Origin: a bacterium
GTDB lineage: Bacteria > Patescibacteriota > Andersenbacteria > UBA10190
DNA: 64,000 bases
Assembly: GCA_030698495.1 (NCBI GenBank)
Contig: JAUYKA010000008.1
Coordinates: forward strand, 14,895-78,894
Direction of reading: 5' to 3'
The position numbers were made by a program, and so were the translations under genes. The notes below the pieces were generated by a model. It made no database searches. It saw only the letters and a list, made by a program, of their open reading frames with translations, and was not told the origin of the DNA. Of the stretch, positions 4,713 through 57,943 are shown in pieces. The first letter of the stretch is position 1. The number at the start of each line of letters is the position of its first letter.

Positions 4713-7539
4713 GGGCTGATACGGGGTAGATTATAAGGCAAAAAACCAATATTAAAGCAACGAGTGTGATAATTTTGGCTTGGGCGATTGCGGGCGAGTG
4801 GTAGCGGAAAGTTACCGTGTGGTTGCCGGCGGGAACGTAGGCGGTTTTAAACACGGTATCGGCGACGTAGTACGGCGCCGGTTGGCCGTCTATGGTAGTT
4901 TGCCACATAGGCAGGGTGCTGTCGGTGACCACCAGCCAGGCGGCATTTTGCGTATCCACGTTAACGGTAGCTTCGCCGTCGCCGTAATCAGTAATAGTAG
5001 CAGTGCCGATAACGGGCGGATTATTGAGCGTGTCGTCGGCGGGAGGCTTCGGGCCGGAGACATATATCAATTCCGCGGGATTGAAATTGTTTTGCGTCAT
5101 GGCGGCGCGCGCTTCGTCATCGGCCGGCTGAAAAATCGCGTTTGGTACCAGAAAGGCTTTGGGAAAGGCTTGGGGGTTGATGTAGAGATTGGCGGAACCG
5201 ATGTTAGTGTCGACACTGTCTGTTAACTGAAAGTTATTGGCCGGCATATTGTCTTGGCCCTGCGGCGGAACTATTTGGGCCAAATGAGTGACGCCGGCCA
5301 GGTCTAGGGTTTTGCGATGGCGCTGGATGGCGTGTAAGCCCTCGCCATCGAAGGGTTGATCGTTGTCGTTGGCAAAGAATGTTTCGATGAATTCCCGATA
5401 AGGCCGGATGGATAGAGCGCCAATCCAGCGGGCGCTGCTGGTATTGGCAGTGGCTTGTAAGTGTCGGGCAAAGATAAGATTTTCGGGGTCGGTTTGCGCG
5501 GAAGAAGTTTCGGCGACTTCCAGACGGTTATACTTCTGCGACTGTTCGATTTGTTCGGTGGTGGGGTTGGCGACGCGGACAAAATAGGCTGATTTGGCGG
5601 TGGAAGTGGAATAAGTGTAAAGGCTGATGCCGTTATCTGTTTGGGATTTAAAGGAAAGATAATAAGTGGCATCGGGAGAGGGGAGGCTTACGTTAAAACA
5701 AAATGTTTGATCGTGAACTTGTGAGATATTGTAGGCGGTAATTGTTTGCGTGGCTACAGGTGGTCCGGTAACTGTTTGGCTTAACGCAATTTCTATGTTG
5801 CCGTCAGCGTTAGGCGGTGCGTACATGGGGGCTGAAAAACAAGGATTATTTGTATTATGGACAATAATAGGCTGGTAAGCGGAAAAATCCGGAGATAAAA
5901 GCGAAGTTGGTTTGATAGTGTACTTGTTGGCGTCTGTTAAGATGGTGTCGCGACTGTAAAGGCGTGGCGGGACGGCGTTATCCAGAGTGTATTGTTCAAG
6001 AGGTGAGGCCAGCGGCGACCGGACGGCTAAAGAAGGCAGCGTCGTTGGATTATAGGCGAAGCCATAAGCGACTAGAGAAAAAGACGCCGTTATAACCAGG
6101 GCCGGCGGCCAGAGGTTAGCGGCGCGGGGGAAACGATGGATAAAAATTCCAAGCAAGAAAACGATCAGGCCGATCAGGGCAATTACGAGCTGCCAGTTGT
6201 AGGTTTTAAGAAGACTGATAAGGCGTGCGGTGATAGTTGGGTCGTGCAGGGATAACAGAAAAGGCAGGAAAATTAAAAGGACTATGAAGGCAGAGAGCAA
6301 AACAGCAAGAGGAGTACGTTTGGGTTTTTTTGTCAGTGATTCAAATCCCAGGGCAGCTAAAATGGCGACGGCAAAATCAACGAAGTAGACGAAGCGGCCA
6401 GCGACGCTAAGGGTGGTTAGGTAACGGTGTTCGACAAGATATCGATAAACGGGCGAATATTGACCCAGGGCAAGTGCGATACCCGATAAAAACAGGATAA
6501 GGGCGGCAATACGCAGCTGTTTATGGTCGCGCCAGTAGAATAAGGAAACGGCTGTCAGCAGTAACGGGATAATACCGGTGAACGCGGCCAGTTCCTGAAA
6601 GCCTTTGGCGCCCCAGTAACGGGCGTGGTCGCCGAAGAAGTAAGGCGCGACTAATGTGATGGCGTGAGCCGGAGGATAACTAAAATCAAAGAGTTCTGTT
6701 TCAGGCAGGTCGGCGTTGCGTTCGGTGAAGGGGATAAATTCTTTTAAAGGGAGGATGGAGAAGGAAGAGAGAGATAAGGCGAGAAGGGCGGAGATAAGAG
6801 TATATACTATGACTAGTGATGTGTATTTTATGATTGAATTGTTAAATTGCTGAATTGTTAAATTGCTTTTTAGGTTAGCGAAGAACAAGGCTAGGCCGAC
6901 AGTGGCAGCGATGATGAAGCTATATAAAACTACTTGTGGTTGGGCGGACATCGTCATGGCAGTGGCGATCAGAGCCATGGCGGCGGCGGCGCGGCGGCGG
7001 GGGCGGTCAAGAAAAGATTTGATGGCGACCAGTAGCCAAGGCAGTAGCATGACGCCGGTATAGAAGTTAACGTGGTTGAGATGGCCGATATTAAAACCGG
7101 AAAAGGTGAAGACAATAGCGCCGAGGGCGGATGAAAGTTGGGATAGGTTAAACTTTCTCAAGAAAACATAAAAACCGGTAAGGCCAATGAGAAAATATGT
7201 TACGACTGATATTTGCAGCAAGATGAGCGGTGGGATATAAAGGGCGCGCATGAACAAATGGAGGGGCGTGAAGAAGCCGAGTTGCCCCCAGGCCATTAGC
7301 GGCTGACCGAAGCCGAACAGGTTGCTCCAGACCGGTAGCTGCCAAGAATGCTGAAACCGCGCGTAAACGGTTTCCAGGGGGTAGTAAATTATTTTTAGAT
7401 CGTCGAGGAAGTAGAACCTTTGTCCGGAGATTATTGGAAAGAAAAAAAACAGCCAGGCTCCGGTAATAATTAACAACCCGGTTCTGTTTTTTGAGACTAA
7501 CGAGAGCAGTTTTTGAAATAAAATAGCGGGGCTTGCCAT
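4690..7539 (-). CDS. YfhO-family polytopic membrane protein, a paralog of the 2274..4712 gene.
   Basis: 949 aa with a multi-TM N-terminus and the motif SWQLPVWSNLFGFGQP. It has a long soluble domain and a C-terminal TM. Its stop overlaps the start of the downstream paralog by 23 nt. Confidence 0.7.
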   Translation of the reverse strand: MASPAILFQKLLSLVSKNRTGLLIITGAWLFFFFPIISGQRFYFLDDLKIIYYPLETVYARFQHSWQLPVWSNLFGFGQPLMAWGQLGFFTPLHLFMRALYIPPLILLQISVVTYFLIGLTGFYVFLRKFNLSQLSSALGAIVFTFSGFNIGHLNHVNFYTGVMLLPWLLVAIKSFLDRPRRRAAAAMALIATAMTMSAQPQVVLYSFIIAATVGLALFFANLKSNLTIQQFNNSIIKYTSLVIVYTLISALLALSLSSFSILPLKEFIPFTERNADLPETELFDFSYPPAHAITLVAPYFFGDHARYWGAKGFQELAAFTGIIPLLLTAVSLFYWRDHKQLRIAALILFLSGIALALGQYSPVYRYLVEHRYLTTLSVAGRFVYFVDFAVAILAALGFESLTKKPKRTPLAVLLSAFIVLLIFLPFLLSLHDPTITARLISLLKTYNWQLVIALIGLIVFLLGIFIHRFPRAANLWPPALVITASFSLVAYGFAYNPTTLPSLAVRSPLASPLEQYTLDNAVPPRLYSRDTILTDANKYTIKPTSLLSPDFSAYQPIIVHNTNNPCFSAPMYAPPNADGNIEIALSQTVTGPPVATQTITAYNISQVHDQTFCFNVSLPSPDATYYLSFKSQTDNGISLYTYSTSTAKSAYFVRVANPTTEQIEQSQKYNRLEVAETSSAQTDPENLIFARHLQATANTSSARWIGALSIRPYREFIETFFANDNDQPFDGEGLHAIQRHRKTLDLAGVTHLAQIVPPQGQDNMPANNFQLTDSVDTNIGSANLYINPQAFPKAFLVPNAIFQPADDEARAAMTQNNFNPAELIYVSGPKPPADDTLNNPPVIGTATITDYGDGEATVNVDTQNAAWLVVTDSTLPMWQTTIDGQPAPYYVADTVFKTAYVPAGNHTVTFRYHSPAIAQAKIITLVALILVFCLIIYPVSAHARSSLS

Positions 7540-8632
<1,093 letters not shown>

Positions 8633-16628: not shown

Positions 16629-17834
16629 ATGCGAGTAGCTTTGGCGGTGGGGGGAATTAGTTATCTTAAGATTTTTGGATCTTTGATAAAGGAGAGCCAT
16701 AGATTTGGAATAGAGCCGATTATTCTGTATTGGCATCCGGAGAAAGATAGCAAAATTTATGAGAACATAACGGGGGATGCTTTATTGAGAACTTTTCCCG
16801 AACTATCCACCGAACAGTTGCATGAATTTGATCCCGCCAACATAAAGGATGTCCTGATTAGAACAAATTGTCAGGCAGTGTTATTTCTTTCGGCATATAA
16901 GCAATATTGTGACCAACTATCTGAAATAGAAGAGCATAACATTTCTACCTGGCGCCTGGAACATTTTGTGAATTCAATTTATGAAACAGCGAAGACAGAA
17001 TATGGTGCCGACGTAGATATGGCCATGAAGCATCTAACGGGTAAGTTTGTGGCCACTGATTTTTGGAAAAATTTGGAATTTAAAATCAAACCGGAGCTAT
17101 CAGCCGTGGCAGATAAATATTATATAGTTGGAAACTTGGTGGCTGACGTTTATAGGTATATAGAACCGGAAAATGCCAGACGAATTTTAAATATTAAGTC
17201 TAATGAAAAAATAATTACTTTTTTTGCCCCTAATATTAGAAAGCACCATTCTTATTATGTTTGGGGTTGGCGCTCGCAGAAGAAATTAGAAACGTTATTA
17301 AAGGAGCTTAGAAATTATTGTGATGAGTTCGGGTATAAACTAGTTATTAAATCCAGAAGAAAACAGTGGGATAATCCTTTGTATAAGGAATACGCCGACC
17401 ATTTTTTTACTGATGTTGTTAGTGCTGCTTATCCCCATGCGTCAGCTTTATTATTGAGTTTGTCTGAATTAATGGTTCATATGGGCTCCATGGCAGTATT
17501 GGAAGCGGCGGCTGTCAATGTTCCTTCTTTGGGGGTGGGAGTGTCGTCAATTGATAAGTTACACGGCTATATGAGTAAGCGGGCCAGACAAATCATTAAA
17601 AAAGATTTGTTTGGAGAGGAGGAGGGATGTCCGTTTTCCTTTAAGGGTGTGTCGGAGCAGATCTCGGTGAACCGAATTAAGAAGGATCTGCCGGAGAGGT
17701 GTGATAGTTTGATTAACTTGAGGGTTAAAAACATGAATAAAATGTTGGACTACAAAAGTAAATTTATAGGTACGTCCCGGTTGTCGGCGGATCGAATTTG
17801 GGAAGAAATTAAAAAACATCATGCGAGCAGTTAA
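16629..17834 (+). CDS. GT-B-fold-like transferase of unknown family. It is a candidate glycosyl- or glycerophospho-transferase, or the missing nonulosonate transferase.
   Basis: 401 aa. The C-terminal half has SELMVHMGSMAVLEAAAVNVPSL, typical of a GT-B C-domain. I could assign no family. Confidence 0.35.
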   Translation: MRVALAVGGISYLKIFGSLIKESHRFGIEPIILYWHPEKDSKIYENITGDALLRTFPELSTEQLHEFDPANIKDVLIRTNCQAVLFLSAYKQYCDQLSEIEEHNISTWRLEHFVNSIYETAKTEYGADVDMAMKHLTGKFVATDFWKNLEFKIKPELSAVADKYYIVGNLVADVYRYIEPENARRILNIKSNEKIITFFAPNIRKHHSYYVWGWRSQKKLETLLKELRNYCDEFGYKLVIKSRRKQWDNPLYKEYADHFFTDVVSAAYPHASALLLSLSELMVHMGSMAVLEAAAVNVPSLGVGVSSIDKLHGYMSKRARQIIKKDLFGEEEGCPFSFKGVSEQISVNRIKKDLPERCDSLINLRVKNMNKMLDYKSKFIGTSRLSADRIWEEIKKHHASS

Positions 17835-18834
17835 AGAAATTCAAGGGTTGCAGGTGGCAGCTAACGATGTGCTTAATTGGCTTCTTCAGAATAGGTCGAA
17901 AAGACTTAATAAGGAAGAATCATATGTTATGAGTATGTTTCGTCAGCAGTTATTGAAAACATATGAAATTTTACCAGTTGGCAGCAAGGGGCAAACAGTG
18001 AAGCTAAAACAATATCGAGTTCCTACAGAAAAAAAATATTTAGCTATTTATGAACTTCAGCAACAATTTCAAGAATTGAGAAACTATTTTAAAGCAGTGA
18101 TTATTCATGGGAGTTTGGCTGATGGATATGTTGTCGATAATTGGAGTGATGTGGATATTCTAGCAATTGTCAAAGACGATGTTTTTGAAAGTACAGAAAA
18201 ATTTGTAACTCTGCGTAAAAAACTATTATCGCTAGAGGAAGGATTGTATAAGTATGATCCGTGGCAACACCATGGGGTGCAGTACATAAGTGAGTCTGAT
18301 CTGGGTTTTTATCCTGAATATTTTTTACCAATTAATGTTATTAAGGAAGGCAGGTTGTTGGTGGGACAAAGTAGGTTGGTTTTTAATTTACGTGGTTCGG
18401 CGGAAGAACAAAGCGCTCGTTTGTACGCAATAAAAGATTTATTTATGGAGTCGGCTAAAAATGGGGAAATGAAGCATCATGCCAGGGACGGAAAATATCT
18501 TCAAGAAGATTTTCGTATGGCAAAAGATAATTTTTATCAGTTCAAGTATTTTATTTCACTAATTTTGTTGATGCCCAGTTTATTTATTGCGCTAGTTGAT
18601 AAACCGATTGATAAAAGGAAGTCTTTTGAAGTTATAAAGAATTATTTTTCTGAAGGCGATTTGGAATTAATCAGGGCAGGTGAGGAAGCGAGGTCTTTGG
18701 CGCCTGATTTTCATATCAAGAACAACGAAATTCCTCTTATTGTCCAAGAAACTCTTGGTGGGGGTTACTTTAAAAGGGCGAGTAAAATATTGAATCTATT
18801 TGTTAAAGAATATGAGTTACGTAAATCTGCCTAA
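17821..18834 (+). CDS. Polymerase-beta-like nucleotidyltransferase-fold protein.
   Basis: VIIHGSLADGYVVDNWSDVDILAIV matches the hG[GS]x9-13Dh[DE]h nucleotidyltransferase motif. A roughly 200-aa helical domain follows. Confidence 0.5.
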   Translation: MRAVKEIQGLQVAANDVLNWLLQNRSKRLNKEESYVMSMFRQQLLKTYEILPVGSKGQTVKLKQYRVPTEKKYLAIYELQQQFQELRNYFKAVIIHGSLADGYVVDNWSDVDILAIVKDDVFESTEKFVTLRKKLLSLEEGLYKYDPWQHHGVQYISESDLGFYPEYFLPINVIKEGRLLVGQSRLVFNLRGSAEEQSARLYAIKDLFMESAKNGEMKHHARDGKYLQEDFRMAKDNFYQFKYFISLILLMPSLFIALVDKPIDKRKSFEVIKNYFSEGDLELIRAGEEARSLAPDFHIKNNEIPLIVQETLGGGYFKRASKILNLFVKEYELRKSA

Positions 18835-19825
18835 AAAGACCGGATATGAAGTATATCGAGTGTGCGAAGAAGAGTTTGTAGAAACAGCTCGAAAATACGC
18901 GGATATTCTGGCGGTATATTCCGGTGGCACAGTCAAGCATCCGGGAATATCGGATTTAGATTTTATTGTTTTTCTAAAAAATCAACTTTCAGTTCGAATG
19001 GATATAGAAAATCGGTTGCCGCAAAAAGTAGTAAAGATGCTAAAAGGAGGGACGATTTTGAAAATTAACGAAAGGAACATACGTGATATTCAAATTATCG
19101 ACCCGTTGCCCTTAAAGCATTTATATGGAGACAAGTATGTATTCCGTCGATACGATGGCACTACTTTCAGTATTTGTCGTATTCTTGATTGGTTGCCAGA
19201 AAGAATTTTTTCTTTATGGCAATATGTATCGCAAGATAGGCGCGATGTTTCCAGGGGCTTGTTGCTATTAAAATCTCTCACAGTCAGTTTGGACCTGGTG
19301 GATCAGCTAAAAGGCGATGGGGCGTATGCTGCTTATCACGAAGAAGTGCATAGTCTCCGCCGCTTGTGGTTTGTATCAGAAAAATCTTTGGAAAATTTTA
19401 ATATTCTGTTAAAACGGGGTATGTGTTTGGCACAAGAAGCTCTTGATAGTATTTCTTTGTGGCTTGTTGATCAAAAATATATATCAGGTAGCCCCGAATT
19501 TATTAAGGGAGCGGTGTTTGATATTCCAAGTGGGCCTACATTTCATTTTGACCAAAAAACACATATAGTGAGAAGCCGCTTATATATTCCATGGGTAGTT
19601 GCAATATTTTTAGCGCAGCAAGCTCAAAGCGGGAAAGGATATCTGTCTATGAGGCTTAAAAAATCATTTGATACTATCATAGATGCAAATCAATATGATA
19701 TAAATTGGGCGTTTGCTAATACAATAACTAAACGTATTGCGTATGTGGAATCCCTGATTAAATTTTTTCATGACAATGGCCTGTCACGGGGTTTGCTGAA
19801 ATACGGTTGGTATTTAAAAGACTAG
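18800..19825 (+). CDS. Polymerase-beta-like nucleotidyltransferase-fold protein, a paralog of the 17821..18834 gene.
   Basis: AVYSGGTVKHPGISDLDFIVFL is a nucleotidyltransferase motif. Its length and layout match the upstream gene. Confidence 0.5.
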   Translation: MLKNMSYVNLPKKTGYEVYRVCEEEFVETARKYADILAVYSGGTVKHPGISDLDFIVFLKNQLSVRMDIENRLPQKVVKMLKGGTILKINERNIRDIQIIDPLPLKHLYGDKYVFRRYDGTTFSICRILDWLPERIFSLWQYVSQDRRDVSRGLLLLKSLTVSLDLVDQLKGDGAYAAYHEEVHSLRRLWFVSEKSLENFNILLKRGMCLAQEALDSISLWLVDQKYISGSPEFIKGAVFDIPSGPTFHFDQKTHIVRSRLYIPWVVAIFLAQQAQSGKGYLSMRLKKSFDTIIDANQYDINWAFANTITKRIAYVESLIKFFHDNGLSRGLLKYGWYLKD

Positions 19826-19828
19826 GGT

Positions 19829-21097
19829 ATGGATGCTAAAAAAATATACGAACAGCTTTTTTATCTGGATCGCTCACTTATGGGGTCGGCTAATGACAAA
19901 GCTCTTGAATTGATAGGGGCCGAAATACCTTTGAGGATTTATAGTTTTCGCAGCGGCGATAAAGTTTTTGATTGGCAGATTCCTAAAGAGTGGATATTTC
20001 ATTCGGGACACATGGTCGATCAAGATACGGGTAAAACGTTGCTGAATGCTGCCGATAATATACTGCGCGTTGTTAATTACAGCGAGAAATTCCACGGCAC
20101 CGTAGAGTACAAGCAGTTGGTAAAGCATCTTCATTATAGTCATGTCATGCCCAATGCGATCCCTTATCTTACTAGTTATTATGCTAAAAACTGGGGGTTG
20201 TGTATGCCCCAAAAACAATTTCATCAGTTAAACAAGAAACATACGTATAAGGTTGAAATTGATGTCGAACGGAAGAGCGGAGTAATGAATATTGGGGAAG
20301 CGGTAATAAAAGGGAAGTCAGACAAAGAGGTTGTATATTCTTCCTATTTATGTCATCCCAGACAAGCCCATGATGGGTTGTCGGGAGTTGTTATGATGTT
20401 GTTGTTATTCCATCTCTTACGAGATAGCAATAATTATTATACTTATCGTTTTTTATTTATTCCTGAAACGATTGGCAGCATCGCTTTGTTGTCGCGCAAT
20501 ATTATACGTCCTTCTCGGGTGGAATATGCCCTTGTCGTTACGTGTGTCGGCAGGGGAGAGCATATTAATTATAAAAAGACGTTTTTGGCAAACCACACTA
20601 TTGATCGTGTTGTGGAACGAGTGCTTAAGAAAAAGGGAAGAAAATATACAGTGCGAACATTTTGGCCCCAAGGCAGTGACGAGCGACAGTTTTCGAGTCC
20701 AAGCATAAGAATTCCCACCGGGTCTATTATGGGAAATGTTTATCAGGAATACCCCGAATATCATACTTCGGCGGACAATTTGAATTATGTATCTTTGCCT
20801 GCGGTGAAAAAATTTGCTCAATTATACTATCAAGTTGCTAAAGAGTATGAGCAGTACCCTAAATTGATCAATAATCTACCGGGGGGTGAGCCTTTTTTGA
20901 CTAAGTATGGTTTGTATCGTGTATTAGGAGTACCCGGGCATACGTCACAAGAGACAATTCGCAGTTGGATATTGTTTCTGGCCGATGGCAGCCATACAAT
21001 TGTTGATATGGCGGCAGAAACCGGTTTTACTGAACGTGAGCTAAAGCCGTTTGTGGCACAATTACTTAAGATGAAGTTAATAAAAGAAACTGAATAA
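19829..21097 (+). CDS. Hypothetical protein, possibly an M28-peptidase-like (DUF4910-type) domain protein with a C-terminal winged helix.
   Basis: 422 aa. The assignment is from memory of the family (IYSFRSGDKVFDWQIPKEW, FIPETIGSIALL) and is tentative. Confidence 0.35.
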   Translation: MDAKKIYEQLFYLDRSLMGSANDKALELIGAEIPLRIYSFRSGDKVFDWQIPKEWIFHSGHMVDQDTGKTLLNAADNILRVVNYSEKFHGTVEYKQLVKHLHYSHVMPNAIPYLTSYYAKNWGLCMPQKQFHQLNKKHTYKVEIDVERKSGVMNIGEAVIKGKSDKEVVYSSYLCHPRQAHDGLSGVVMMLLLFHLLRDSNNYYTYRFLFIPETIGSIALLSRNIIRPSRVEYALVVTCVGRGEHINYKKTFLANHTIDRVVERVLKKKGRKYTVRTFWPQGSDERQFSSPSIRIPTGSIMGNVYQEYPEYHTSADNLNYVSLPAVKKFAQLYYQVAKEYEQYPKLINNLPGGEPFLTKYGLYRVLGVPGHTSQETIRSWILFLADGSHTIVDMAAETGFTERELKPFVAQLLKMKLIKETE

Positions 21098-21098
21098 A

Positions 21099-22904
21099 AT
21101 GGATATGTTTGTGCAGAAACCATACGTTCTGGCGGAAATTGCCGGGGCTCACGATGGCAGTGAAGAGCGATTATTTCAATTGATTGATGCTATTGGTGAA
21201 ACAGGAGCCCATGGAGTTAAATTCCAATTATTTCAAGCCGAAGGGCTGGCCACACAAGATCATCCACAGTATGCAATATGGCAGCGCCTTTCCTTTACAA
21301 CAGATATATGGCTTAGGGCTATGGACAAGGCGCGAGGCCTCGGGTTGAATGTGTGGATCGATGTCTTTGATGACTGGGCGCAGGATTTTTGTCTAAAGCA
21401 CGAGAAAAAAATATATGGGTATAAGTTTCATGCAACAAAGGTATTTGACCCGAGAGTTCCCCGTGTTTTTTACGGGAGTAAGAAGCATATCCTTATTGGC
21501 ATAAGCGGTTATGAAGACAGCGAGGTGCATAAACTTGTAAATTTATACTCCAGGTTACGACACGCCTCAATAATTCTCGAACATGGTTTTCAGCAATACC
21601 CCACGCCTTTAAAGGAAGCCAGTCTGGCGCGCATTCGACACTTAAAAGATAGTTTTATGTTACCGGTTGCGTTTGCCGACCATACTAAAGGGGGCTCAAG
21701 GGAAGCCATGATGATTCCGGAATATGCTTATATGGTCGGTGCCTCTTTGATTGAAAAACATGTTTGTCTTTCCCGAGCCACTACGAAGTATGATTATCAT
21801 TCTTCGCTGGAACCGGGGGAATTAAAGAGAATGGTTGAGCGGCTACGTGTTTGTAATGATGTATTGGGTGAGGATACGCCCACTATTGCACAAATTGAAA
21901 ACACGAAACAAGTTGTAGTAAAACCGGTGTTAAAAAGAAGTATAAAAAAAGGGGTTGTGGTGGGCGAGAAAGATGTGACTTATCTTCGTTCCCCTAATCG
22001 TAACGCTTTAACTGCTGAACGGTTTCAATCTCTTTTTCCGGCAGTTACCGACATGGATCTGGTTGCGGGGCGTGTTATTGAGGGAAGAGATGTACATCGT
22101 CCTCGTGTTATTGCGGTTGTGCCTTGTCGAATGAAATCCACTCGTTTACCCAAGAAGGCTCTATTAGAAATAGGCGGAATGCCTTCTGTTAAACGAGCAT
22201 TGATAAACATAAAGACTTTTCCGGTGAGCCAGGTTGTGTTGGCAACTTCTATTAATGGCGAAAATGATGAGCTGGTGGAGTATGCCAAGGAATTAGATGT
22301 CTCGGTAGTGAGAGGACCAGAGGATGATGTGTTAGAGAGAATTATTTTAGCAGTCAATAAGTATCAGGCAGAGTATGTAATTCGTTGTCCGGCTGATTCC
22401 ATTTTTGCAAGCGGTGACATTATGCGTTTTCTGATCGAGCGGCATATTACATCCGGATATGATTTGACGACTCCCGCTCAACCATATTCTATTGGCACGG
22501 CGGGGGAAGTGTATACCGTCGAAGCGCTTTATAAATTACGCAAATTACTTTTTAAAACCGAGTATAGTGAATACTTGCCGATGTATTTTACTAATAATCC
22601 GTCTATTTTTACCGCACAGCGGGTTCTTCTTCCTGAACAATTTCGTAATGATCAATGGAGATTAACTCTAGATGAAGAAAGAGACTTGGAATTATTTCGT
22701 AAAATTTATGATTACCTTAAACCCGGCCACAATCCTGTTTTCTATGAGCAGGTTGCCGAGTTTTTTGCCGCCTATCCGGGTGCGGAGAAGATTAACGCGG
22801 GAGTTTCTACTAAATGGTGTGATGACTATGAATTAGTAAGAAAAATTACAGAGAAAACTACTATTTCAAAAAAAGTTATATTAACGAATCGGGCAGTTGT
22901 TTGA
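21099..22904 (+). CDS. Bifunctional fusion: an N-terminal NeuB/SpsE-like nonulosonic-acid synthase domain (TIM barrel plus SAF-like) and a C-terminal SpsF/NeuA-like cytidylyltransferase domain.
   Basis: The N-terminus has VLAEIAGAHDGS...HGVKFQLF...AFADHT...IEKHVCLS, which is NeuB-like with a variant NHNG. The C-terminus has IAVVPCRMKSTRLPKKALLEI...VLATS...VVRG, the cytidylyltransferase signature. Confidence 0.7.
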   Translation: MDMFVQKPYVLAEIAGAHDGSEERLFQLIDAIGETGAHGVKFQLFQAEGLATQDHPQYAIWQRLSFTTDIWLRAMDKARGLGLNVWIDVFDDWAQDFCLKHEKKIYGYKFHATKVFDPRVPRVFYGSKKHILIGISGYEDSEVHKLVNLYSRLRHASIILEHGFQQYPTPLKEASLARIRHLKDSFMLPVAFADHTKGGSREAMMIPEYAYMVGASLIEKHVCLSRATTKYDYHSSLEPGELKRMVERLRVCNDVLGEDTPTIAQIENTKQVVVKPVLKRSIKKGVVVGEKDVTYLRSPNRNALTAERFQSLFPAVTDMDLVAGRVIEGRDVHRPRVIAVVPCRMKSTRLPKKALLEIGGMPSVKRALINIKTFPVSQVVLATSINGENDELVEYAKELDVSVVRGPEDDVLERIILAVNKYQAEYVIRCPADSIFASGDIMRFLIERHITSGYDLTTPAQPYSIGTAGEVYTVEALYKLRKLLFKTEYSEYLPMYFTNNPSIFTAQRVLLPEQFRNDQWRLTLDEERDLELFRKIYDYLKPGHNPVFYEQVAEFFAAYPGAEKINAGVSTKWCDDYELVRKITEKTTISKKVILTNRAVV

Positions 22905-23562
22905 AATTGCTATGCAGCACATGAATAATAGAAACAATACTTATCTAACCAAAAGCGAAGAAAGTCGTTTACGGTTATTGGAGAAAAATTCTCATGAATA
23001 TCTAGAACAACTGCAGGACAGTGCTCTTAAGTGGTCGTGGAGAGGGTGGATACCGCGGGCGCTGGGGAGATCTAAGTATTCCTTGTGGGCATGGCAAACA
23101 CGAGTTCCTCTGGCGCATCGTTGGTCCTTAATTCTTCAGCAATGTGAAGAATTAAGGACTTTTTTGATCCAGTCGGATTCATGGGAAAAAGCGCGATGTA
23201 TGAATGTGCTTGATTTGGGATGTGGTTTTGGCATGTATTGGCCAATATTGAGGGAATATGGATTCCGTAAGTTTGTGGGAATAGATTTATTCGATATGAG
23301 GGGGAGGCAGCAATATTTTAAAGCGGCGAGAAAATATATTGGAAAATTTTGTTCGGACTGTGAAACTCAATTAATTATGGACGATGTTCGAAATCTAGAT
23401 AAACATAAACTGCTGGCTGATAAGTTTGATATAATTTTAAATATAGCAACTACCTCCACAAAACTTAGATCCACCGGTATTCCCCACGATATTCTAGAGA
23501 GTGTCGGGAAAAAACATGGGGCAGAAAATTGCCTTATAGTCGACGTTGCCAAGGCCCATTAA
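22897..23562 (+). CDS. Class I SAM-dependent methyltransferase.
   Basis: It has VLDLGCGFGMYW (motif I), FDIILNI and a post-I acidic residue. Confidence 0.6.
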   Translation: MFEIAMQHMNNRNNTYLTKSEESRLRLLEKNSHEYLEQLQDSALKWSWRGWIPRALGRSKYSLWAWQTRVPLAHRWSLILQQCEELRTFLIQSDSWEKARCMNVLDLGCGFGMYWPILREYGFRKFVGIDLFDMRGRQQYFKAARKYIGKFCSDCETQLIMDDVRNLDKHKLLADKFDIILNIATTSTKLRSTGIPHDILESVGKKHGAENCLIVDVAKAH

Positions 23563-24636
23563 TTGCATGTTATGACACACACTTATGTGATAGGTGAAAT
23601 AGGGCAGAACCATAATGGTTCTGTGGGTCTGGCAAAACGCATCATTGATATAGCGTCTATGCCGGTTATTGACAATAATGGCCGTGAGTACAAGGCAATG
23701 GATGCGATCAAGCTGCAAAAAAGGGACCTACGTGAAGAGATGACTGCTTCAGAGAGGCTAAAAGCGTATGATAGTACAAATTCTTTTGGTAGAACATACG
23801 GAGAGCACAGAGCGTATTTAGAATTAAGCAACGAGCAGCATGCGGAGCTTTATTACTACGCTAAAAATAGAGGGCTGGAGGTGGTGGAAACCATTTGCAG
23901 TGTGGGAGCGCTGGAGCTGCTTGATTTTTTTAAACCAGATAAATTAAAAGTTGCTTCAAGGGATCTGACTAATTTGCCATTGGTTGAGGCGATGGCAAGA
24001 ACTAAAATACCCCTTATTCTTTCGACGGGGATGTCGGGAATTGAAGATTTGGCAGAAGCTTTAAAAATTGTCAGTGCGTATCAATCCAGAATTACTATTT
24101 TGCATTGTCTTTCCCAGTATCCGGCGGATTATAAAAATATAAATTTGCATACCATTACATATCTTCGCCGGGAATATCCTCAACATATTATCGGTTACTC
24201 TGACCATAGTGAAGGCATTATGATTCCAGTTGCGGCGGTGTCTTTGGGCGCTCAAGTTATTGAAAAGCATTTAACATTGAATCGTGCAATGAAAGGATCT
24301 GATCATCGGGGGGCCTTGGCCCCTGATGGTGTTTTTCGGATGATGCGCGATATACGACATTTGGAGTTGGCTCTAGGAGAGCCAATAATGGAAGCTCATC
24401 CTGCAACTACCATCGCAAGGGATAAACTGGAAAGGTCAGTTGCTGCCAGAAGAGACCTGATGATTGGAGAGATTATAACAGAGGAAGATATCCATTTGCT
24501 TAGTCCGGGGATGGGGTTGAAATGGAGAGATAGAGGAAAGATTCTAGGACGCAAAGTCAAGCAGGTTGTCAAAAAAGATGAGCTGATACTATTGGAAGAT
24601 TGCACGCAGGAGACCGTGCTGCAAAAAGTAGCCTAA
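23563..24636 (+). CDS. NeuB-family nonulosonic acid synthase (N-acetylneuraminate / legionaminate / Kdn-type).
   Basis: VIGEIGQNHNGS, PLILSTGMSG, ILHCLSQYP, IGYSDHSEG and VIEKHLTLNRAMKGSDH align with NeuB catalytic motifs. A C-terminal SAF domain follows. Confidence 0.85.
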   Translation: MHVMTHTYVIGEIGQNHNGSVGLAKRIIDIASMPVIDNNGREYKAMDAIKLQKRDLREEMTASERLKAYDSTNSFGRTYGEHRAYLELSNEQHAELYYYAKNRGLEVVETICSVGALELLDFFKPDKLKVASRDLTNLPLVEAMARTKIPLILSTGMSGIEDLAEALKIVSAYQSRITILHCLSQYPADYKNINLHTITYLRREYPQHIIGYSDHSEGIMIPVAAVSLGAQVIEKHLTLNRAMKGSDHRGALAPDGVFRMMRDIRHLELALGEPIMEAHPATTIARDKLERSVAARRDLMIGEIITEEDIHLLSPGMGLKWRDRGKILGRKVKQVVKKDELILLEDCTQETVLQKVA

Positions 24637-24643
24637 ATTAGCC

Positions 24644-25207
24644 CTATATCGTTTTGGCGATCAGTAGTAATTCTAGTATTTCTCTGACGGCGCCGTCCCC
24701 GCCTGAAGATTTAGTAATGTACCCTTTTGTTTTTTGGACAAAATCAATGACTGGCGGGTAAGAATCTTTTACGGCAATGGGCAATCCAACTGCCCGGAGA
24801 CAGTCAAGGTCATTTAAATCATTGCCAACATATATTGTATTTTTCAAAGAGATTTTTCTTGATTTAGTCTGTTTTTGTAACTCAATTAATTTATTGGTGA
24901 CGCCGTGATATGCTTTAATTTTTAATTTGTTGGCACGAGAGACGACGATGTTGTTTGCTTCTGCGGATATGATTATAAATTTAAGACCCAGGGCGACTAA
25001 TTCTTTATAACCAAAAAAGTCACTGCGATCACATTGAACATACTCTAACCCCTCTCGATCTATTAATACTTTATTATTGGTGATTACTCCATCGAAATCT
25101 AAAACAACAAGCTTACAATTGCTAAGTATTTCTTTAGTTTTCTTGGGTAATCTATCAAATCTATTTTTAGCCTCTTTATTTTTGATGATGATATTGACGT
25201 AGTTCAT
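24644..25207 (-). CDS. HAD-superfamily KdsC/YrbI-family phosphatase (Kdo-8-P or nonulosonate-9-P phosphatase type).
   Basis: LVVLDFDGVITNN (DxD motif I), YVGNDLNDL and GDGAVREI are the classic KdsC family motifs. Confidence 0.85.
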   Translation of the reverse strand: MNYVNIIIKNKEAKNRFDRLPKKTKEILSNCKLVVLDFDGVITNNKVLIDREGLEYVQCDRSDFFGYKELVALGLKFIIISAEANNIVVSRANKLKIKAYHGVTNKLIELQKQTKSRKISLKNTIYVGNDLNDLDCLRAVGLPIAVKDSYPPVIDFVQKTKGYITKSSGGDGAVREILELLLIAKTI

Positions 25208-25219
25208 ATTAATGTCTCT

Positions 25220-26131
25220 CTATTTCTTACGGCAAACTACACGCTTAACACTACTGCCGTTCATTGTAATTTTGCCTTCTATAGCACGAAAATTATTTTT
25301 GATGAACTTGAGTACCTCCAAGCGCTGGTTGGTTGATCCGATAGTATCAAGGCCATCGCCGTCAGAGCTAATATAGTCGAAGATAAAGTAACCACCTGTT
25401 TGCAGCTGCCGGTGCAGATGCCGGACTATTGACAGCGGGCGGGGGAGATGCTCAAGAACAGTCAAACAAGTAATAACATCATAAGTATTTTTTAGAGGAG
25501 CGGTGTCAATGGGATCAAGGGTTTTTATCTCCACATTTTTATAGTTTTGCAGTTTCCAGCGAGCGAAGTGAAGCAGTATGTTTGGTATATCTGTTCCGGT
25601 TAATTTTAAATTAAGTTCGGGATAATAGCGGGCTAGGTTTTGTGTGATCGGCGCAAGTCCGCAGCCATACTCGCAAACAGAATCTCTTTTTTTGATATAT
25701 TTGCGAATACTCCAGACAGAGATCGGGTGGAGAGCCAGTTTGTATTGATAGGCAAAAATAAGGTAGGTTGTGGCGGGGTCCTGCCATGTCGATAAAAAGG
25801 ATTCCCTGTTTTGTTCTTGGTTAGCGGCTATTCTAACGAACTGAAATTTTGATCTATAGAGTCCATAAAGGTAGAAAAAATCAGGAAGAGACAATCGGCA
25901 TAATTGAAGTTCGTATTTCCAATAGTTTTGAAATTCATTAAACCACCCCAGCACCAGATTGGCATATACCATTCTTTTCCATATCCCGCTGATTTGTAAC
26001 GCTGCCAAACTCCAAAATTGTATTTTTCTGGTTAGCATTAGACCCGGCTTTTGGGTGCTTTGGGATCTTGGCGGAGAGGATAATAACCTATTAATATCCA
26101 ATTCTACTAGGTCGTAGTGGTTTTTAAGCAT
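25220..26131 (-). CDS. Class I SAM-dependent methyltransferase.
   Basis: It has VCEYGCGLAP, YDVITCLTVLEHLP and TGGYFIFD. Confidence 0.6.
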   Translation of the reverse strand: MLKNHYDLVELDINRLLSSPPRSQSTQKPGLMLTRKIQFWSLAALQISGIWKRMVYANLVLGWFNEFQNYWKYELQLCRLSLPDFFYLYGLYRSKFQFVRIAANQEQNRESFLSTWQDPATTYLIFAYQYKLALHPISVWSIRKYIKKRDSVCEYGCGLAPITQNLARYYPELNLKLTGTDIPNILLHFARWKLQNYKNVEIKTLDPIDTAPLKNTYDVITCLTVLEHLPRPLSIVRHLHRQLQTGGYFIFDYISSDGDGLDTIGSTNQRLEVLKFIKNNFRAIEGKITMNGSSVKRVVCRKK

Positions 26132-50315: not shown

Positions 50316-51539
50316 ATGAAAATATTGTTTTTGTCGGCCTTATATCCGCCGCAGACGCGCGGAGGCGGCGAGTTGTCAACACACTATATTGCCCAGGGAC
50401 TACGTCAAATCGGGCATGAAGTTCAAGTTGTGACGACAGGCGCGCGAAACGGAGCATATGAAGTTGAGGGCGTGCCGGTCAGGGTGTTGGCGGCTAATCT
50501 AACCGCGAAACCTTTGCTGGAAAGAAGGCATAGCCGGAAAATGGCGAAGATATTGGCGCGGGAAATTAATAGCGGTAAAAAATACGATGTCGTGCACGCA
50601 CATGATTTCAGGTCAGCTTTGGCGCTGGCGGAGTTAAACTTGCCTAACGCACTGGTAACGACACGCGATTACGCGCAGATTTGCGGTTCCCCGAATAATT
50701 TATTAGCGGACGGACGGGAATGTCCCGGCTGTACCAGTATTAAAAATGTTTTGCAAAATCGCAACGTGGTGGAAGCGCCGTTTTTGCGTAAACCGTTCAG
50801 AGTTTGGCAGTACCGGTACAATATTGGATATCGCTTGAAGGCTTTTCGTAAATTTAAACAGCAGGTTTTTATATCGCACGCACAATTGGCGGAAATAAAA
50901 AAAATACAGGATTTATCGCAAACCCAAACAACGGTGATTTATAATCCGGTACCGCCGGCTTATTTGAACAACGCTATCCAGCTGCCGGTGGGGCGGACTA
51001 TCTTGTTTGTTGGTACGATAGAATCGTATAAGGGAGTGGGGTTGTTACTGGAAGCGTTTAAACAAATAAGCCGTCAATATAACGACATCAATTTAAAGAT
51101 TGTCGGAGAAGGGGCGGGGAAGGAAGGATATCAAAACTGGGTAGAGAAAAACGGGTTACAGTACCGGGTGACTTTTGTGGGTCGGGTACCGTGGGATCAT
51201 ATGGGCAGGATTTATGATGAAGCGGCGATAGTGGTGGCGCCGCATATTTGGGTAGAACCTTTTGGCAGGACGGTCGCTGAAGCTATGGCGCGAGGTAAAA
51301 TAGTTATTAGCGCCAATATTGGCGGGCCGGCGGAGATCATCCAGCCTTTTAAGACAGGGGTATTATTCGAAAGGGGCTCCGTTGAAGATTTAATTTTATC
51401 AATTGGTGAGGTACTGGAGATGAATGAGTTCGATAAGAGGGAGATTAGCCGGGCGGCGCGAGAGTGGGTGGCGAATAATTTGAATATTGAGAAGATTGCG
51501 CGGGAATATGAGGAAGTTTACAAGAATTATTTGTGTTAG
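50316..51539 (+). CDS. GT4-family glycosyltransferase.
   Basis: It has ILFLSALYPPQTRGGGE and VVAPHIWVEPFGRTVAEAMARGKIVISANIGGPAEII. Confidence 0.85.
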   Translation: MKILFLSALYPPQTRGGGELSTHYIAQGLRQIGHEVQVVTTGARNGAYEVEGVPVRVLAANLTAKPLLERRHSRKMAKILAREINSGKKYDVVHAHDFRSALALAELNLPNALVTTRDYAQICGSPNNLLADGRECPGCTSIKNVLQNRNVVEAPFLRKPFRVWQYRYNIGYRLKAFRKFKQQVFISHAQLAEIKKIQDLSQTQTTVIYNPVPPAYLNNAIQLPVGRTILFVGTIESYKGVGLLLEAFKQISRQYNDINLKIVGEGAGKEGYQNWVEKNGLQYRVTFVGRVPWDHMGRIYDEAAIVVAPHIWVEPFGRTVAEAMARGKIVISANIGGPAEIIQPFKTGVLFERGSVEDLILSIGEVLEMNEFDKREISRAAREWVANNLNIEKIAREYEEVYKNYLC

Positions 51540-52753
51540 TTAGATTGCCGCGTCTCGCGATTTATCACGCACCTCCAGCCGGCGCTAAAGCTATGGCTGG
51601 CGCAGCGCAATGACGTTGCTTTAGAAACAATATCGGGTAAAACCATTTCGGGTGCTAGTTTTAGAAGGGTGGGATGGGTGTTTGAACCAAAATTGTAATT
51701 AGTATTGACGTCATAAACCGGTGTGGTTTCAGGGGCGCGAACCGACCAGCTTTGCCGGCCGCGAGGACCGGTTTTATTTTCATCGGTAGGGCCGAATAAA
51801 CCAAGGGTGGGTGTGCCAACGATGGCGGCTAGATGCATAAGTCCGGAGTCGTTGGATATAAAAAGTTGGCAGTTTTTCATGATGGCGGCGGTAGTGAGGA
51901 GATTGGTGGTATTTAGTATTTTGTATTTAGTATTTTGCCGCTTTAAAAGCTCTCCTAGTTTTTGCTTGATATCATTTTCATCATTACCGCCAAAGATGAG
52001 AAATATTGTTTGTTGATAGCGTGTTTGATTGGTGAGTAGTTCGGCTAGTTTGGCAAAGTTTTCTAATGGCCAGCGTTTCCATTTGAATTCCTGGCTGGAG
52101 CCGGGATGGAGGCCAACGAGGGTCGTCCCGGGTGGTATGTTGAGCGATTTTAAGATTTTATTTGCTTGTGCAGTTAATTTATTGGGGATGTTTATTTTGT
52201 AGGACGACCCAATTTCCAATTTCCCAGCCGTTGTTTGCGAGCTATGGCCGGCAAGGCAATTTCCCAGCCGTTGCTTGCGAGCTATGGCCGGCAAGGCAAT
52301 TTCCAATTTTGACAGTAAGTTGAGGTTTTGTTCTATGTCATGGAGTTTCGGGTTTGGCGGGACTGAATCTGTCAGTAAGAAACCGCTTTGCGGGTTATGA
52401 CGATAGGGATATTGATGGGCGAGACGTTTGGGGATGCCGGCTAAGTACATATAGGCGGCGCCTTTCCATAATTGGCCGGGGTGGAGCATGATGGCGATGT
52501 CATAATGGCCGCGGCGCAGACGCCACAGTTGTTGATAGTGGAAAAGAAGCGACCCTCTGATTGGCGCTTCGATAACTTCGTCGATATACGGATTGGTTTG
52601 AGCTAAAGCTTTAGTACCGCGTGGGGCAACCCAAACGACTAGACGGGCGTGAGGGTAGTGTTGTTTTAATGTGCGGAAGACCGGCGATTGTATGAGAAAA
52701 TTGCCAATACCGGCAAGAGAAAGTATCAGAATATTGGGTGATTTTTTTGACAT
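51536..52753 (-). CDS. GT9-family glycosyltransferase (ADP-heptose:LPS heptosyltransferase-like).
   Basis: The N-terminus has ILILSLAGIGNFLIQSPVFRTLKQHYPHARLVVWV. The C-terminus has LFISNDSGLMHLAAIVGTPTLGLFGPTD. Confidence 0.8.
   Translation of the reverse strand: MSKKSPNILILSLAGIGNFLIQSPVFRTLKQHYPHARLVVWVAPRGTKALAQTNPYIDEVIEAPIRGSLLFHYQQLWRLRRGHYDIAIMLHPGQLWKGAAYMYLAGIPKRLAHQYPYRHNPQSGFLLTDSVPPNPKLHDIEQNLNLLSKLEIALPAIARKQRLGNCLAGHSSQTTAGKLEIGSSYKINIPNKLTAQANKILKSLNIPPGTTLVGLHPGSSQEFKWKRWPLENFAKLAELLTNQTRYQQTIFLIFGGNDENDIKQKLGELLKRQNTKYKILNTTNLLTTAAIMKNCQLFISNDSGLMHLAAIVGTPTLGLFGPTDENKTGPRGRQSWSVRAPETTPVYDVNTNYNFGSNTHPTLLKLAPEMVLPDIVSKATSLRCASHSFSAGWRCVINRETRQSN
51541..51615. repeat. Repeat element copy B, a short version of 48738..48863. 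It overlaps the 3-prime end of the GT9 gene.
   Basis: tagattgccgcg...ctccagccggcgctaaagctatggctggcgcagcgcaatgacg. It encodes the last roughly 25 aa of the predicted GT9 protein. Confidence 0.45.
52217..52296. repeat. Perfect-but-one 40-bp tandem duplication inside the GT9 coding sequence. The unit is caatttcccagccgttg(t/c)ttgcgagctatggccggcaagg.
   Basis: The two units are at 52217..52256 and 52257..52296 and differ at one base. Caatttc heptamers flank them. The unit shares gctatggccggca with the intergenic repeats. Confidence 0.8.
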
Positions 52754-57215: not shown

Positions 57216-57235
57216 GAGATAGGCTTTATGCGGGA

Positions 57236-57943
57236 TTATTTCCCCGTCAGCCGCAGTTTCCAAACTATAGCCATGGCTTCACGGACTATTTTGCCACTCA
57301 TTTTAGATTTCCCGGCCCGGCGTTCAGTAAAGACAATGGGTATTTCTTTAATGCGCAGATGTCGGCGCCATGACCGGAAGATGGTTATTACTTGAAAACC
57401 ATAGCCATCGGCACGGATTGTTGGTAAGTCAATAGTTTGAAGAGCGCTTGATCGCCAAGCGCGAAAGCCGCCGGTTGAATCTTTAAAAGGAAGGCCGGTA
57501 ATAAAACCGGCGTAAGCGTTGCCGCCGATGCTTAAAAGTAAGCGGCGCAGGGGCCAATTGACGATACTGATGCCGTTAACGTAGCGCGAGCCAATAACAA
57601 CATCGCTGCTTTCCAGGTGTTGGAGTAGTCGGGGGACATCATGGGGGTTATGAGAAAAGTCCGCATCCATCTGCACGACACTATCCGCCCCTTTTGCGAC
57701 GGCGTATTGAAAACCATGAATGTAGGCGCGGCCGAGGCCGGATTTTTTGGGGCGGACGACGAGTTGCAGTTTTGGAAAGTTGGTTTGCAGACGGCGCACT
57801 ATATCGGCCGTGCGGTCGGGAGAGTTATCGTCAATAATAAGAACGGAAATATTGGGTACGTTAAGAGCGAACAAAGATTTGATCATTTGTTCGATATTCA
57901 TTTTTTCGTTGTAGGTAGGTATGACTACCCAAGGATTGTTCAT
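57236..57943 (-). CDS. Dpm1/Ppm1-like GT2 polyprenol-monophosphate sugar synthase (dolichol-phosphate mannosyltransferase family).
   Basis: It has VVIPTYNEKMNI, VLIIDDNSPDRT, GLGRAYIHGF, VQMDADFSHNP and VVIGSRY. Confidence 0.9.
   Translation of the reverse strand: MNNPWVVIPTYNEKMNIEQMIKSLFALNVPNISVLIIDDNSPDRTADIVRRLQTNFPKLQLVVRPKKSGLGRAYIHGFQYAVAKGADSVVQMDADFSHNPHDVPRLLQHLESSDVVIGSRYVNGISIVNWPLRRLLLSIGGNAYAGFITGLPFKDSTGGFRAWRSSALQTIDLPTIRADGYGFQVITIFRSWRRHLRIKEIPIVFTERRAGKSKMSGKIVREAMAIVWKLRLTGK

Follow-up and report, generated by a model that had tools for sequence, protein, structure and literature searches.

The 9-phosphate (Kdn/NANS-type) route to nonulosonic acids is usually regarded as a peculiarity of Bacteroides and eukaryotes. 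In Bacteroides thetaiotaomicron, 2-keto-3-deoxynonulosonic acid (Kdn) activated with cytidine monophosphate (CMP) is produced by a synthase (BT1714), a phosphatase (BT1713) and a CMP-Kdn synthetase (BT1715). In vertebrates, NANS, NANP and CMAS follow a 9-phosphate route, and NANS is a synthase bearing an AFP/SAF domain and lacking the residue Arg314 (PMC11339185). The pseudaminic acid (Pse) pathway employs PseB, PseC, PseH, PseG, PseI and PseF in Campylobacter and Helicobacter, with a Pen/Pal variant in Bacillus thuringiensis; its known synthases (PseI/SpsE) and its known single-domain cytidylyltransferases (PseF/SpsF, about 230-250 amino acids, aa) are separate proteins. The locus described here lies in contig JAUYKA010000008.1 of the metagenome-assembled genome GCA_030698495.1, in a stretch of 64,000 nucleotides that was analysed as a whole (hereafter the window). 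Like B. thetaiotaomicron, it carries a NeuB-family synthase, a YrbI-family C0 haloacid dehalogenase (HAD) phosphatase and a cytidylyltransferase. In this locus a NeuB-like domain is fused to the cytidylyltransferase, which belongs to the PseF/SpsF type. Four open reading frames (ORFs) occupy exactly positions 21099-25207: the fusion (21099-22904), a methyltransferase-like ORF (22897-23562) and a standalone NeuB (23563-24636) on the plus strand, and the phosphatase (24644-25207) on the minus strand. An earlier note made from the DNA letters had placed the fusion, the standalone NeuB and the phosphatase correctly and had overlooked the methyltransferase-like ORF.

From the domain identities, residue patterns, gene neighbourhoods and synteny that were observed, a set of substrates, an order of steps, a methylation and a history of gene replacement can be proposed. 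In the reading that we favour, with a probability of about 0.6, the interval directs the synthesis of a CMP-activated nonulosonic acid by way of a phosphorylated intermediate, and the fusion was imported into this pathway, its N-terminal domain coming along with the module. The acid would most likely be Kdn, either as such or methylated. The standalone NeuB would condense phosphoenolpyruvate (PEP) with a hexose 6-phosphate, in the simplest case mannose-6-phosphate (Man-6-P) from central metabolism, to give a nonulosonate 9-phosphate (9-P). The phosphatase would then take the phosphate off, and the C-terminal domain of the fusion would make the CMP-sugar for the surrounding glycosyltransferases. 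Homology, signature residues and conserved neighbourhood point to these three steps. More conjecturally, the ORF at 22897-23562 and/or neighbouring methyltransferases would probably O-methylate the sugar, and local glycosyltransferases would transfer it, one candidate being a BFO_1060/TIGR04396-type protein at 56040-57263. No PseB, PseC, PseG, PseH, aminotransferase, N-acetyltransferase or UDP-N-acetylglucosamine 2-epimerase was found in the 64-kb window to supply an N-acetylated precursor, and Kdn from Man-6-P is the simplest reading of the product. Unlike the vertebrate pathway, the window also lacks a supply of N-acetylmannosamine-6-phosphate (ManNAc-6-P) of the GNE epimerase/kinase type.

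The assignment of the first step rests on the standalone NeuB. This protein of 357 aa matches Pfam NeuB at 1.4e-66 (225 bits against a gathering score of 22), and its SAF domain was found by Pfam at 1.8e-8. It contains the motifs EIGQNHNGS, IIGYSDHSEG and VIEKHLTLNRAMKGSDH. The earlier note had called it canonical, which holds for NHNG, GYSDH and the SAF domain; the spacing of IEKH..L..G.DH is slightly off, and the equivalent of Arg314 is absent. Residues are numbered here as in Neisseria meningitidis NeuB (NmNeuB; 1XUZ/2WQP), in which Arg314 comes from the SAF domain and is essential. NmNeuB shares with both window proteins the triosephosphate isomerase (TIM) barrel followed by SAF, the metal ligands His215 and His236, and Glu25, Glu234, Lys53 and Lys129. 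A comparison of the two NeuB-like domains had been proposed earlier. It found the metal ligands in both and the triad of PEP-phosphate ligands in the standalone protein only, where Ser132, Ser154 and Ser213 are intact (S, S, S). The standalone protein differs from NmNeuB in having Ser in place of Arg314 and KR in place of TH at positions 56-57.

To place the synthase, 72 standalone NeuBs and 83 fusion N-domains from 86 related loci (numbered with an L below) were aligned with NmNeuB, Campylobacter jejuni PseI and the Kdn-9-P synthase of Prymnesium parvum, whose sequence was taken from the coding sequence printed in the supplement of PMC6200933. This enzyme has been characterised experimentally and accepts only Man-6-P (PMC6200933). 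A signature of 9-P synthases was defined in the present analysis, and is not a curated one: [K/T]R at 56-57, G[ST]D[HQ] at 245-248 and no Arg314. It occurs, as [K/T]R with G[ST]DH and no Arg314, in only four of the 72 aligned standalone NeuBs, namely the window NeuB (KR after the KxQ motif, GSDH, Ser at 314) and three NeuBs that adjoin homologues of the window phosphatase. At 56-57 all the remaining standalone NeuBs carry T and then Y, F or H. The P. parvum enzyme has KR and GTDH, likewise lacks Arg314, and has no SAF domain at all. In a neighbour-joining tree, the window NeuB, the three phosphatase-linked NeuBs and the P. parvum enzyme form an exclusive five-member clade. A database search placed the window NeuB in a very large, mostly Bacteroidota family with 58-72% identity, several members of which are labelled 'Kdn 9-phosphate synthase' by the Joint Genome Institute (JGI). 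All of the best 120 database relatives carry the signature, Ser at the 314 column and an intact PEP serine triad. Arg314, which contacts the N-acetyl group of N-acetylmannosamine, is reported to occur in every bacterial synthase but not in the mammalian N-acetylneuraminic acid (Neu5Ac) 9-phosphate synthase (PMC11339185). These features support the phosphorylated-route reading well and place the standalone NeuB in the nonulosonate-9-phosphate (Kdn-9-P/NANS-like) clade.

The phosphatase (187 aa, within the range of about 160-190 aa for capless members of its family) is convergent with the synthase, 7 nucleotides from the synthase stop. Its HAD motifs comprise DFDGVIT (motif I), a conserved Lys in NKL and GNDLND (motif IV), and these, with matches to KdsC, YrbI and B. 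thetaiotaomicron-type models that stay below the cut-offs, agree with its description in the earlier note as a KdsC/YrbI-family HAD phosphatase on the opposite strand. It aligns end to end with KdsC, with KDN9PP (the Bacteroides Kdn-9-P phosphatase) and with the structure 3mmz. Linkage of this gene to the synthase recurs. Phosphatase homologues with 44-50% identity, picked on long contigs, lie directly downstream of a NeuB in three of three loci (L085-L087), with a CTP_transf_3 gene nearby, and relatives of the synthase adjoin a Hydrolase_3 phosphatase in three of three further loci (L088-L090), so that synthase and phosphatase are neighbours in six of six. The arrangement is convergent, as in the window, in L088 and L089. 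By contrast, no such phosphatase was found within 10 kb of the fusion in the 79 other fusion loci (0/79). These data support the prediction that 24644-25207 encodes a nonulosonate-9-phosphate phosphatase. The argument, already made before this analysis, that a dedicated phosphatase implies a 9-phosphate product as in the Kdn pathway of Bacteroides has gained from the signature, the shared clade with a Kdn-9-P synthase and the six linked loci.

Alternatively, the phosphatase could be a housekeeping KdsC, acting on 3-deoxy-D-manno-octulosonic acid 8-phosphate (Kdo-8-P) for lipopolysaccharide (LPS) and lying in a glycan region by chance, while the standalone NeuB uses a free sugar, as most bacterial NeuBs do. 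The KdsC equivalog is indeed the best NCBIfam match (6.4e-29), heptosyltransferase-like LPS-core genes occur in the window, and phosphatase and synthase lie on opposite strands. Nevertheless, the match to KdsC reaches only 101 where the cut-off is 208, among solved structures the uncharacterised 3mmz (109 bits) comes closest, ahead of KdsC (about 73 bits), and no kdsA, kdsB or kdsD was found nearby. The convergent pair is also conserved in L088 and L089, homologues adjoin a NeuB in L085-L087 and L090, and the NeuB itself lacks Arg314 and carries the 9-P-clade signature. Because of this linkage, set against its absence from the 79 fusion loci, a housekeeping role is considered very improbable.

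A likeness to Bacteroides is also seen in a Bacteroidota relative, L090 (about 60% identity), where cytidylyltransferase, NeuB, phosphatase and a sialyltransferase-like gene stand together. The window departs from the Bacteroides Kdn system in several respects. Its phosphatase scores 88 bits against the BT1713-type cut-off of 180, is closer to 3mmz and is convergent rather than co-directional with the synthase. Its cassette is embedded with three conserved genes of unknown function and many methyltransferases. Compared with vertebrates, in which a YrbI-like fold is associated with the cytidylyltransferase (CMAS; 3ewi), the YrbI family is also present in the window, but the partner of the cytidylyltransferase is a NeuB-like domain instead of a phosphatase-like one. 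Two of the phosphatase-linked loci share a recurrent cassette (L086 5950-13462 and L087 5834-14513) made up of a 9-P-type NeuB, a YrbI-like phosphatase, a short-chain dehydrogenase, an aldehyde dehydrogenase, CTP_transf_3 and transketolase, to which L086 adds a radical-SAM/SPASM gene. Such a set would fit a route that turns a phosphorylated sugar into an undescribed ulosonic acid.

The origin of the fusion is best seen in L088 and L089, which are syntenic with the window over nine orthologous genes in the same order (31-69% identity), among them the genes starting at 16629, 17821 and 18800, the synthase, the phosphatase, a 303-aa methyltransferase and several glycosyltransferases. Neither locus has the fusion or a counterpart of the DUF4910 gene that precedes it. 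At their place stand an unrelated protein of 378-385 aa and a protein of 380-388 aa (L088 7842-8984, L089 7760-8926) with a CTP_transf_3 N-terminal part and a C-terminal half resembling S-adenosylmethionine (SAM)-dependent methyltransferases, an architecture which suggests that methylation is coupled to CMP-activation of the nonulosonic acid. The window ORF at 22897-23562 shows 48-49% identity to residues 177-380 of these proteins. The nearest relatives of the fusion (40% identity) all stand in Pse contexts (L002, L091). On the comparison of these three loci, the simplest history would be that an incoming DUF4910-plus-fusion segment replaced the cytidylyltransferase part of a cytidylyltransferase-methyltransferase gene and left the methyltransferase half as an overlapping ORF. 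The fusion occupies the place of that gene, of which only the methyltransferase half survives, so it was probably recruited for its cytidylyltransferase. Since it would have replaced the cytidylyltransferase half, its NeuB-like domain most likely came along with the module. The window has no second CTP_transf_3 or cytidylyltransferase-like ORF besides the C-domain of the fusion. A small methyltransferase also follows the fusion in L091, and the possibility that the methyltransferase-like ORF travels with the fusion was rejected, as the two methyltransferases are not homologous.

The fusion is a protein of 601 aa with Pfam NeuB at residues 28-258 (2.8e-31, 109 bits against a gathering score of 22) and CTP_transf_3 at residues 338-551 (4e-17, 63 bits against a cut-off of 22.6). 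The strings EIAGAHDGS and IAVVPCRMKSTRLPKKAL are present, as the earlier note had it in describing a NeuB/SpsE-like barrel (AHDG) fused to a cytidylyltransferase. The barrel and an SAF-like domain take up residues 1 to about 335 (21099..22103, plus strand) and the cytidylyltransferase residues about 336-601 (22104..22904, plus strand). The C-domain contains CRMKSTRLPKKAL, with R344, S347, R349 and K353 invariant in the family; the motifs CRxKSTRLPKKAL and RLTLD are likewise invariant across the family, and RxKSTRLPxK with RLTLD is common to PseF/SpsF-type enzymes of the Pse/SpsE-SpsF pathway (B. subtilis; PMC7439481). It matches the cytidylyltransferase 6OEW in sequence (5.2e-12) and in a Foldseek comparison, with a template modelling (TM) score of 0.85. 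An AlphaFold (AF2) model built from 19 family members (predicted local distance difference test, pLDDT, 90.7) displays eight strand/helix barrel units, SAF and the cytidylyltransferase. Foldseek aligned the N-domain with PseI, SpsE and NeuB at TM 0.77-0.83 (C. jejuni PseI 0.77-0.79), and SAF is visible in the model and in the alignment of about 342 columns to PseI and NeuB. No solved chain spanning both halves was found by Foldseek. The fusion remains below the equivalog cut-offs for NeuB_NnaB (120 against 400) and PseI (121 against 340), and the NCBI annotation is 'N-acetylneuraminate synthase family protein'.

The NeuB-like/CTP_transf_3 architecture (about 590 aa) recurs as a family, present in at least 80 species. 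Scanning one genome per species gave 319 matches, of which 80, all spanning both domains, were kept. These 80 loci are spread over Bacillota, Bacteroidota, Nitrospirota, Pseudomonadota, Acidobacteriota, Verrucomicrobiota, candidate phyla and one archaeon. Most members stand in a Pse or legionaminic acid (Leg) operon, which the window copy does not. The usual context is a Pse operon in the order PseB, (Pal), PseC, (PseG), fusion, PseH, PseI, which puts the fusion at the position of PseF, between PseC/PseG and PseH/PseI; in 73 of 79 loci no cytidylyltransferase domain other than that of the fusion lies within 10 kb. Of the 42 loci whose flanks are complete, 34 also hold a separate NeuB, which invariably shares the strand of the fusion and usually follows it at a distance of 1.6 kb. 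The DUF4910 gene, the two nucleotidyltransferase-like genes, the 401-aa gene and the methyltransferases of the window have no homologues in the 80 fusion loci, and hence are not part of a fusion-linked module. Among the Bacillus loci, that of B. spizizenii (L007 9971-19355) holds the fusion and a complete Pse operon (PseB, Pal, PseC, PseF, PseG, PseH, PseI) with its own PseF, while B. stercoris, B. mexicanus and B. rugosus have the fusion alone at the same place (L004 9971-11767). This site lies between spoIIQ/GNAT-side genes and a cardiolipin-synthase-like gene. In L091, a HisH/HisF-like glutamine amidotransferase/cyclase pair (6390-7778) sits inside the fusion-containing Pse operon and is compatible with an acetimidoyl-type tailoring of pseudaminic acid.

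The N-domain of the fusion was compared column by column with the standalone synthases. The equivalents of E25, H30, K53, Q55, K129, Y186, D214, H215, E234, K235, H236, D247 and R314, which serve metal binding, catalysis or sugar contact, are invariant or nearly so in the 83 fusion N-domains (Arg314 in 83 of 83), and all 13 are kept in the window. Loss of all catalytic residues, which the earlier note had named, together with a phosphatase acting only on Kdo-8-P, as evidence against its proposal, is not what is seen. The family has exchanged several residues that standalone NeuBs conserve at 88-100%, and has done so in a consistent manner. At position 213, Ser becomes Ala in 94% of the family; at 154, Ser becomes Asn (75%) or Gly (22%); at 132, Ser is retained in only 40%, with Ala, Thr or Pro in about 60%; Ser/Asn at 184 becomes Gln in 99%, and Cys at 182 becomes Gly in 99%. 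Asn at position 29 gives way to Thr, Ala or Val, and position 110, Thr in NmNeuB, is Asp or Glu. The window copy has T110D, S132A, S154G, N184Q and S213A. Relative to PseI/SpsE, the family thus differs by T110 to D/E, S154 to N/G, N184 to Q and S213 to A; relative to NmNeuB, the fusion keeps Arg314 and is without Ser213 and Ser154. Ser132, Ser154 and Ser213 are ligands of the PEP phosphate and are reported as fully conserved in bacterial and mammalian synthases (PMC11339185). This triad is missing from the fusion N-domain, being A, G and A in the window.

In the neighbour-joining tree, 82 of the 83 fusion N-domains are split by a single branch from all 75 standalone sequences. Midpoint rooting had made the fusion clade appear non-monophyletic, a rooting artefact that disappeared when the tree was re-rooted. 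The exception is L080 (9917-11752), whose N-domain groups with standalone NeuBs and scores 152 bits against PseI seeds; it could stem from a later or separate fusion event. A more canonical PEP pocket was looked for in fusions without a companion NeuB, and the idea was dropped because their pocket is no more canonical. Given residues that are conserved yet altered and a separate branch of the tree, the N-domain is neither a decayed pseudo-enzyme nor a normal second synthase. Judged from the alignment and the model, it is structurally intact and under selection, with a remodelled PEP-phosphate pocket. The choice put forward earlier, two different sugars or a regulatory pseudo-enzyme, is not supported in that form: the N-domain is not decayed, its PEP triad is replaced, the fusion is a foreign Pse-type module, and genes for a second, N-acetylated precursor are missing from the window. 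In this locus the domain would most likely be a passenger or an accessory.

Two working synthases making two sugars would explain the 13 invariant residues from E25 to R314 and the complete barrel with SAF seen in the model and by Foldseek. The fusion would then be self-sufficient, condensing PEP with an N-acetylated 6-deoxy- or amino-hexose and CMP-activating a Pse- or Leg-like product, and the second sugar would come from the standalone NeuB and the phosphatase; its activation would fall to the fusion's cytidylyltransferase, acting promiscuously, or to an enzyme encoded elsewhere. Loci in which the fusion is the sole NeuB homologue, among them L013, L061 and L081 with PseB, PseC and PseH, fit this view, as do B. 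stercoris, which retains the fusion alone, and B. spizizenii, where it is additional to the Pse operon with its own PseF. However, the PEP-phosphate serines are replaced family-wide (S213 to A in 94%, S154 to N/G in 97%, S132 to A/T/P in about 60%) along with T110 to D/E, and a fusion acting as a normal PseI would make the separate same-strand NeuB of 34 of 42 full-flank loci superfluous. The window, moreover, has no aminotransferase, N-acetyltransferase or 2-epimerase for such a precursor. We regard this explanation as unlikely.

A somewhat better, still tentative, alternative is that the NeuB-like domain is non-catalytic and binds the finished nonulosonic acid or oligomerises the enzyme, thereby feeding or stabilising the cytidylyltransferase. 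The residues Q55, Y186, D247 and R314, which touch the sugar, have been retained together with the metal ligands, whereas the ligands of the PEP phosphate have been exchanged. Every copy of the domain is joined to a cytidylyltransferase, a real synthase nearly always accompanies it, and in the window it arrived with the cytidylyltransferase in a pathway already owning one. A precedent exists in vertebrates, where the KdsC-like phosphatase domain of CMP-sialic acid synthetase is inactive and serves as a tetramerisation platform; a PDB search identified the C-terminal domain of the mouse CMP-sialate synthetase (3ewi) as a YrbI-like fold. Yet invariant Glu25, Glu234, Lys53 and Lys129 across very distant phyla exceed the needs of a binding module. 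The replacements are themselves conserved (Gln184 99%, Gly182 99%, Ala213 94%), a pattern of an adapted active site rather than of relaxed selection. The fused domain might also be a distinct enzyme class, rather than a redundant synthase, with a conserved, re-engineered donor pocket (Asp/Glu110, Asn/Gly154, Gly182, Gln184, Ala213) performing an unrecognised step on nonulosonic acids, for example condensation with a non-PEP donor, or epimerisation or tailoring of the open-chain sugar; this is a speculative proposal to which we give low odds.

Several points weigh against the phosphorylated-route reading with an imported fusion. First, the standalone NeuB does not reach the equivalog cut-offs for NeuB_NnaB (TIGR03569, 263 against 400) or PseI (TIGR03586, 208 against 340). 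Taken as a whole, it resembles the P. parvum enzyme (106 bits) hardly more than a NeuB from a Pse operon does (103 bits), and global similarity was dropped as a means of distinguishing among the NeuB ORFs; the synthase assignment consequently rests on a few signature columns, the distance tree and gene context. Second, human NANS lacks Arg314 as well and its substrate is ManNAc-6-P, and Kdn is indistinguishable here from Neu5Ac or another sugar. Third, the phosphatase is below the cut-offs for KdsC (NF007019, 100.9 against 208), KDN-9-PPhBT (NF058599, 87.7 against 180) and the YrbI subfamily (TIGR01670, 90.3 against 106.95), which makes it a divergent branch nearest to 3mmz, and the host, being apparently diderm, needs a Kdo-8-P phosphatase somewhere. 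Fourth, the fusion N-domain, with its 13 residues kept, could yet turn out to be an active synthase. A phosphate might be held by Asn154 and Gln184, which would allow the use of PEP, and 8 of the 42 full-flank loci have no NeuB homologue but the fusion within 10 kb, in some of them adjoining Pse genes.

The whole window around the phosphorylated-route cassette is devoted to glycan biosynthesis and encodes numerous GT2, GT4 and GT9 glycosyltransferases along with methyltransferases, an ATP-binding cassette (ABC) exporter and MurJ. The fusion, the methyltransferase-like ORF and the synthase form the distal end of a densely packed plus-strand operon (16629-24636), whose genes overlap or adjoin one another at their start and stop codons. 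It is opened by a conserved protein of 401 aa (16629..17834) that has orthologues of full length at the same position in L088 and L089 (31-34% identity) and no match in Pfam (E<=5), NCBIfam or PDB sequences. The following protein of 337 aa (17821..18834, plus strand), conserved with the cassette, resembles Pol-beta-type nucleotidyltransferases through weak NTP_transf_2 and Polbeta matches below the cut-off; its orthologues in L088 and L089 show 38-44% identity, and a PDB sequence search gave no match. The third protein, of 341 aa (18800..19825, plus strand), has orthologues with 40-41% identity in both loci and no family match (Pfam E<=5), and PDB sequences gave no match either. These three consecutive genes are kept with the synthase/phosphatase/cytidylyltransferase cassette in the window (16629-19825), in L088 (3516-6712) and in L089 (3436-6632). 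An aminopeptidase-like DUF4910/DUF2172/HTH_47 protein of 422 aa (19829..21097, plus strand; Pfam DUF4910 4.2e-72; PDB 3k9t, a 'putative peptidase', 9.4e-88) is particular to the window among the three loci. The SAM-methyltransferase-like ORF at 22897..23562 (plus strand, 221 aa; start at 22921 according to the gene caller) has weak Methyltransf_23/25 matches and an LDLGCGFG motif. Upstream of the phosphatase, a class I SAM methyltransferase of 303 aa (25220..26131, minus strand; Pfam Methyltransf_23/12/31/11) keeps its synteny, with 47-50% identity to L088 14610-15533 and L089 10672-11610.

Further away, the minus-strand gene at 56040-57263 matches a BFO_1060-family glycosyltransferase domain and TIGR04396 ('surface carbohydrate biosynthesis protein'), both below the cut-off. 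Its product, encoded 31 kb from the cassette, is a candidate for the transferase of the nonulosonic acid. Kinship of the 401-aa protein with this BFO_1060-type transferase was considered and rejected, the two being unrelated. Heptosyltransferase (GT9) homologues at 51536-52753 and 58006-59052 (both minus strand) suggest a diderm host with an LPS-like core. GC skew is strongly positive (+0.09 to +0.31) in every 2-kb bin of the window (1-64000) regardless of gene orientation, and GC content is 37-42% over 16-32 kb compared with 45-49% at the window ends. A scan for promoters and terminators returned fewer promoter-like sites than were found in shuffled sequence.

The pathway itself is of an ordinary kind and is not a categorically new system; what is new is the Pse-type fusion within it and the conserved remodelling of its N-domain. 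The locus would place the 9-phosphate route in a probably diderm environmental bacterium, and phosphatase linkage combined with the residue signature (KR after KxQ, G[ST]DH, no Arg314) would serve as a simple genome marker for 9-P synthases. The fusion is widespread, generically annotated and apparently uncharacterised, and full-text literature searches found no paper describing a NeuB-like/cytidylyltransferase fusion. It is almost always paired with a second, ordinary synthase. A function of the N-domain could add a step or a control point to the pathways of pseudaminic acid and related sugars, which are used in flagellin and surface glycosylation. If the fused domain did prove to be a distinct enzyme class, such a step would exist in at least 80, possibly several hundred, bacterial and archaeal species, and the window would show that it is portable between Pse-type and Kdn-type pathways.

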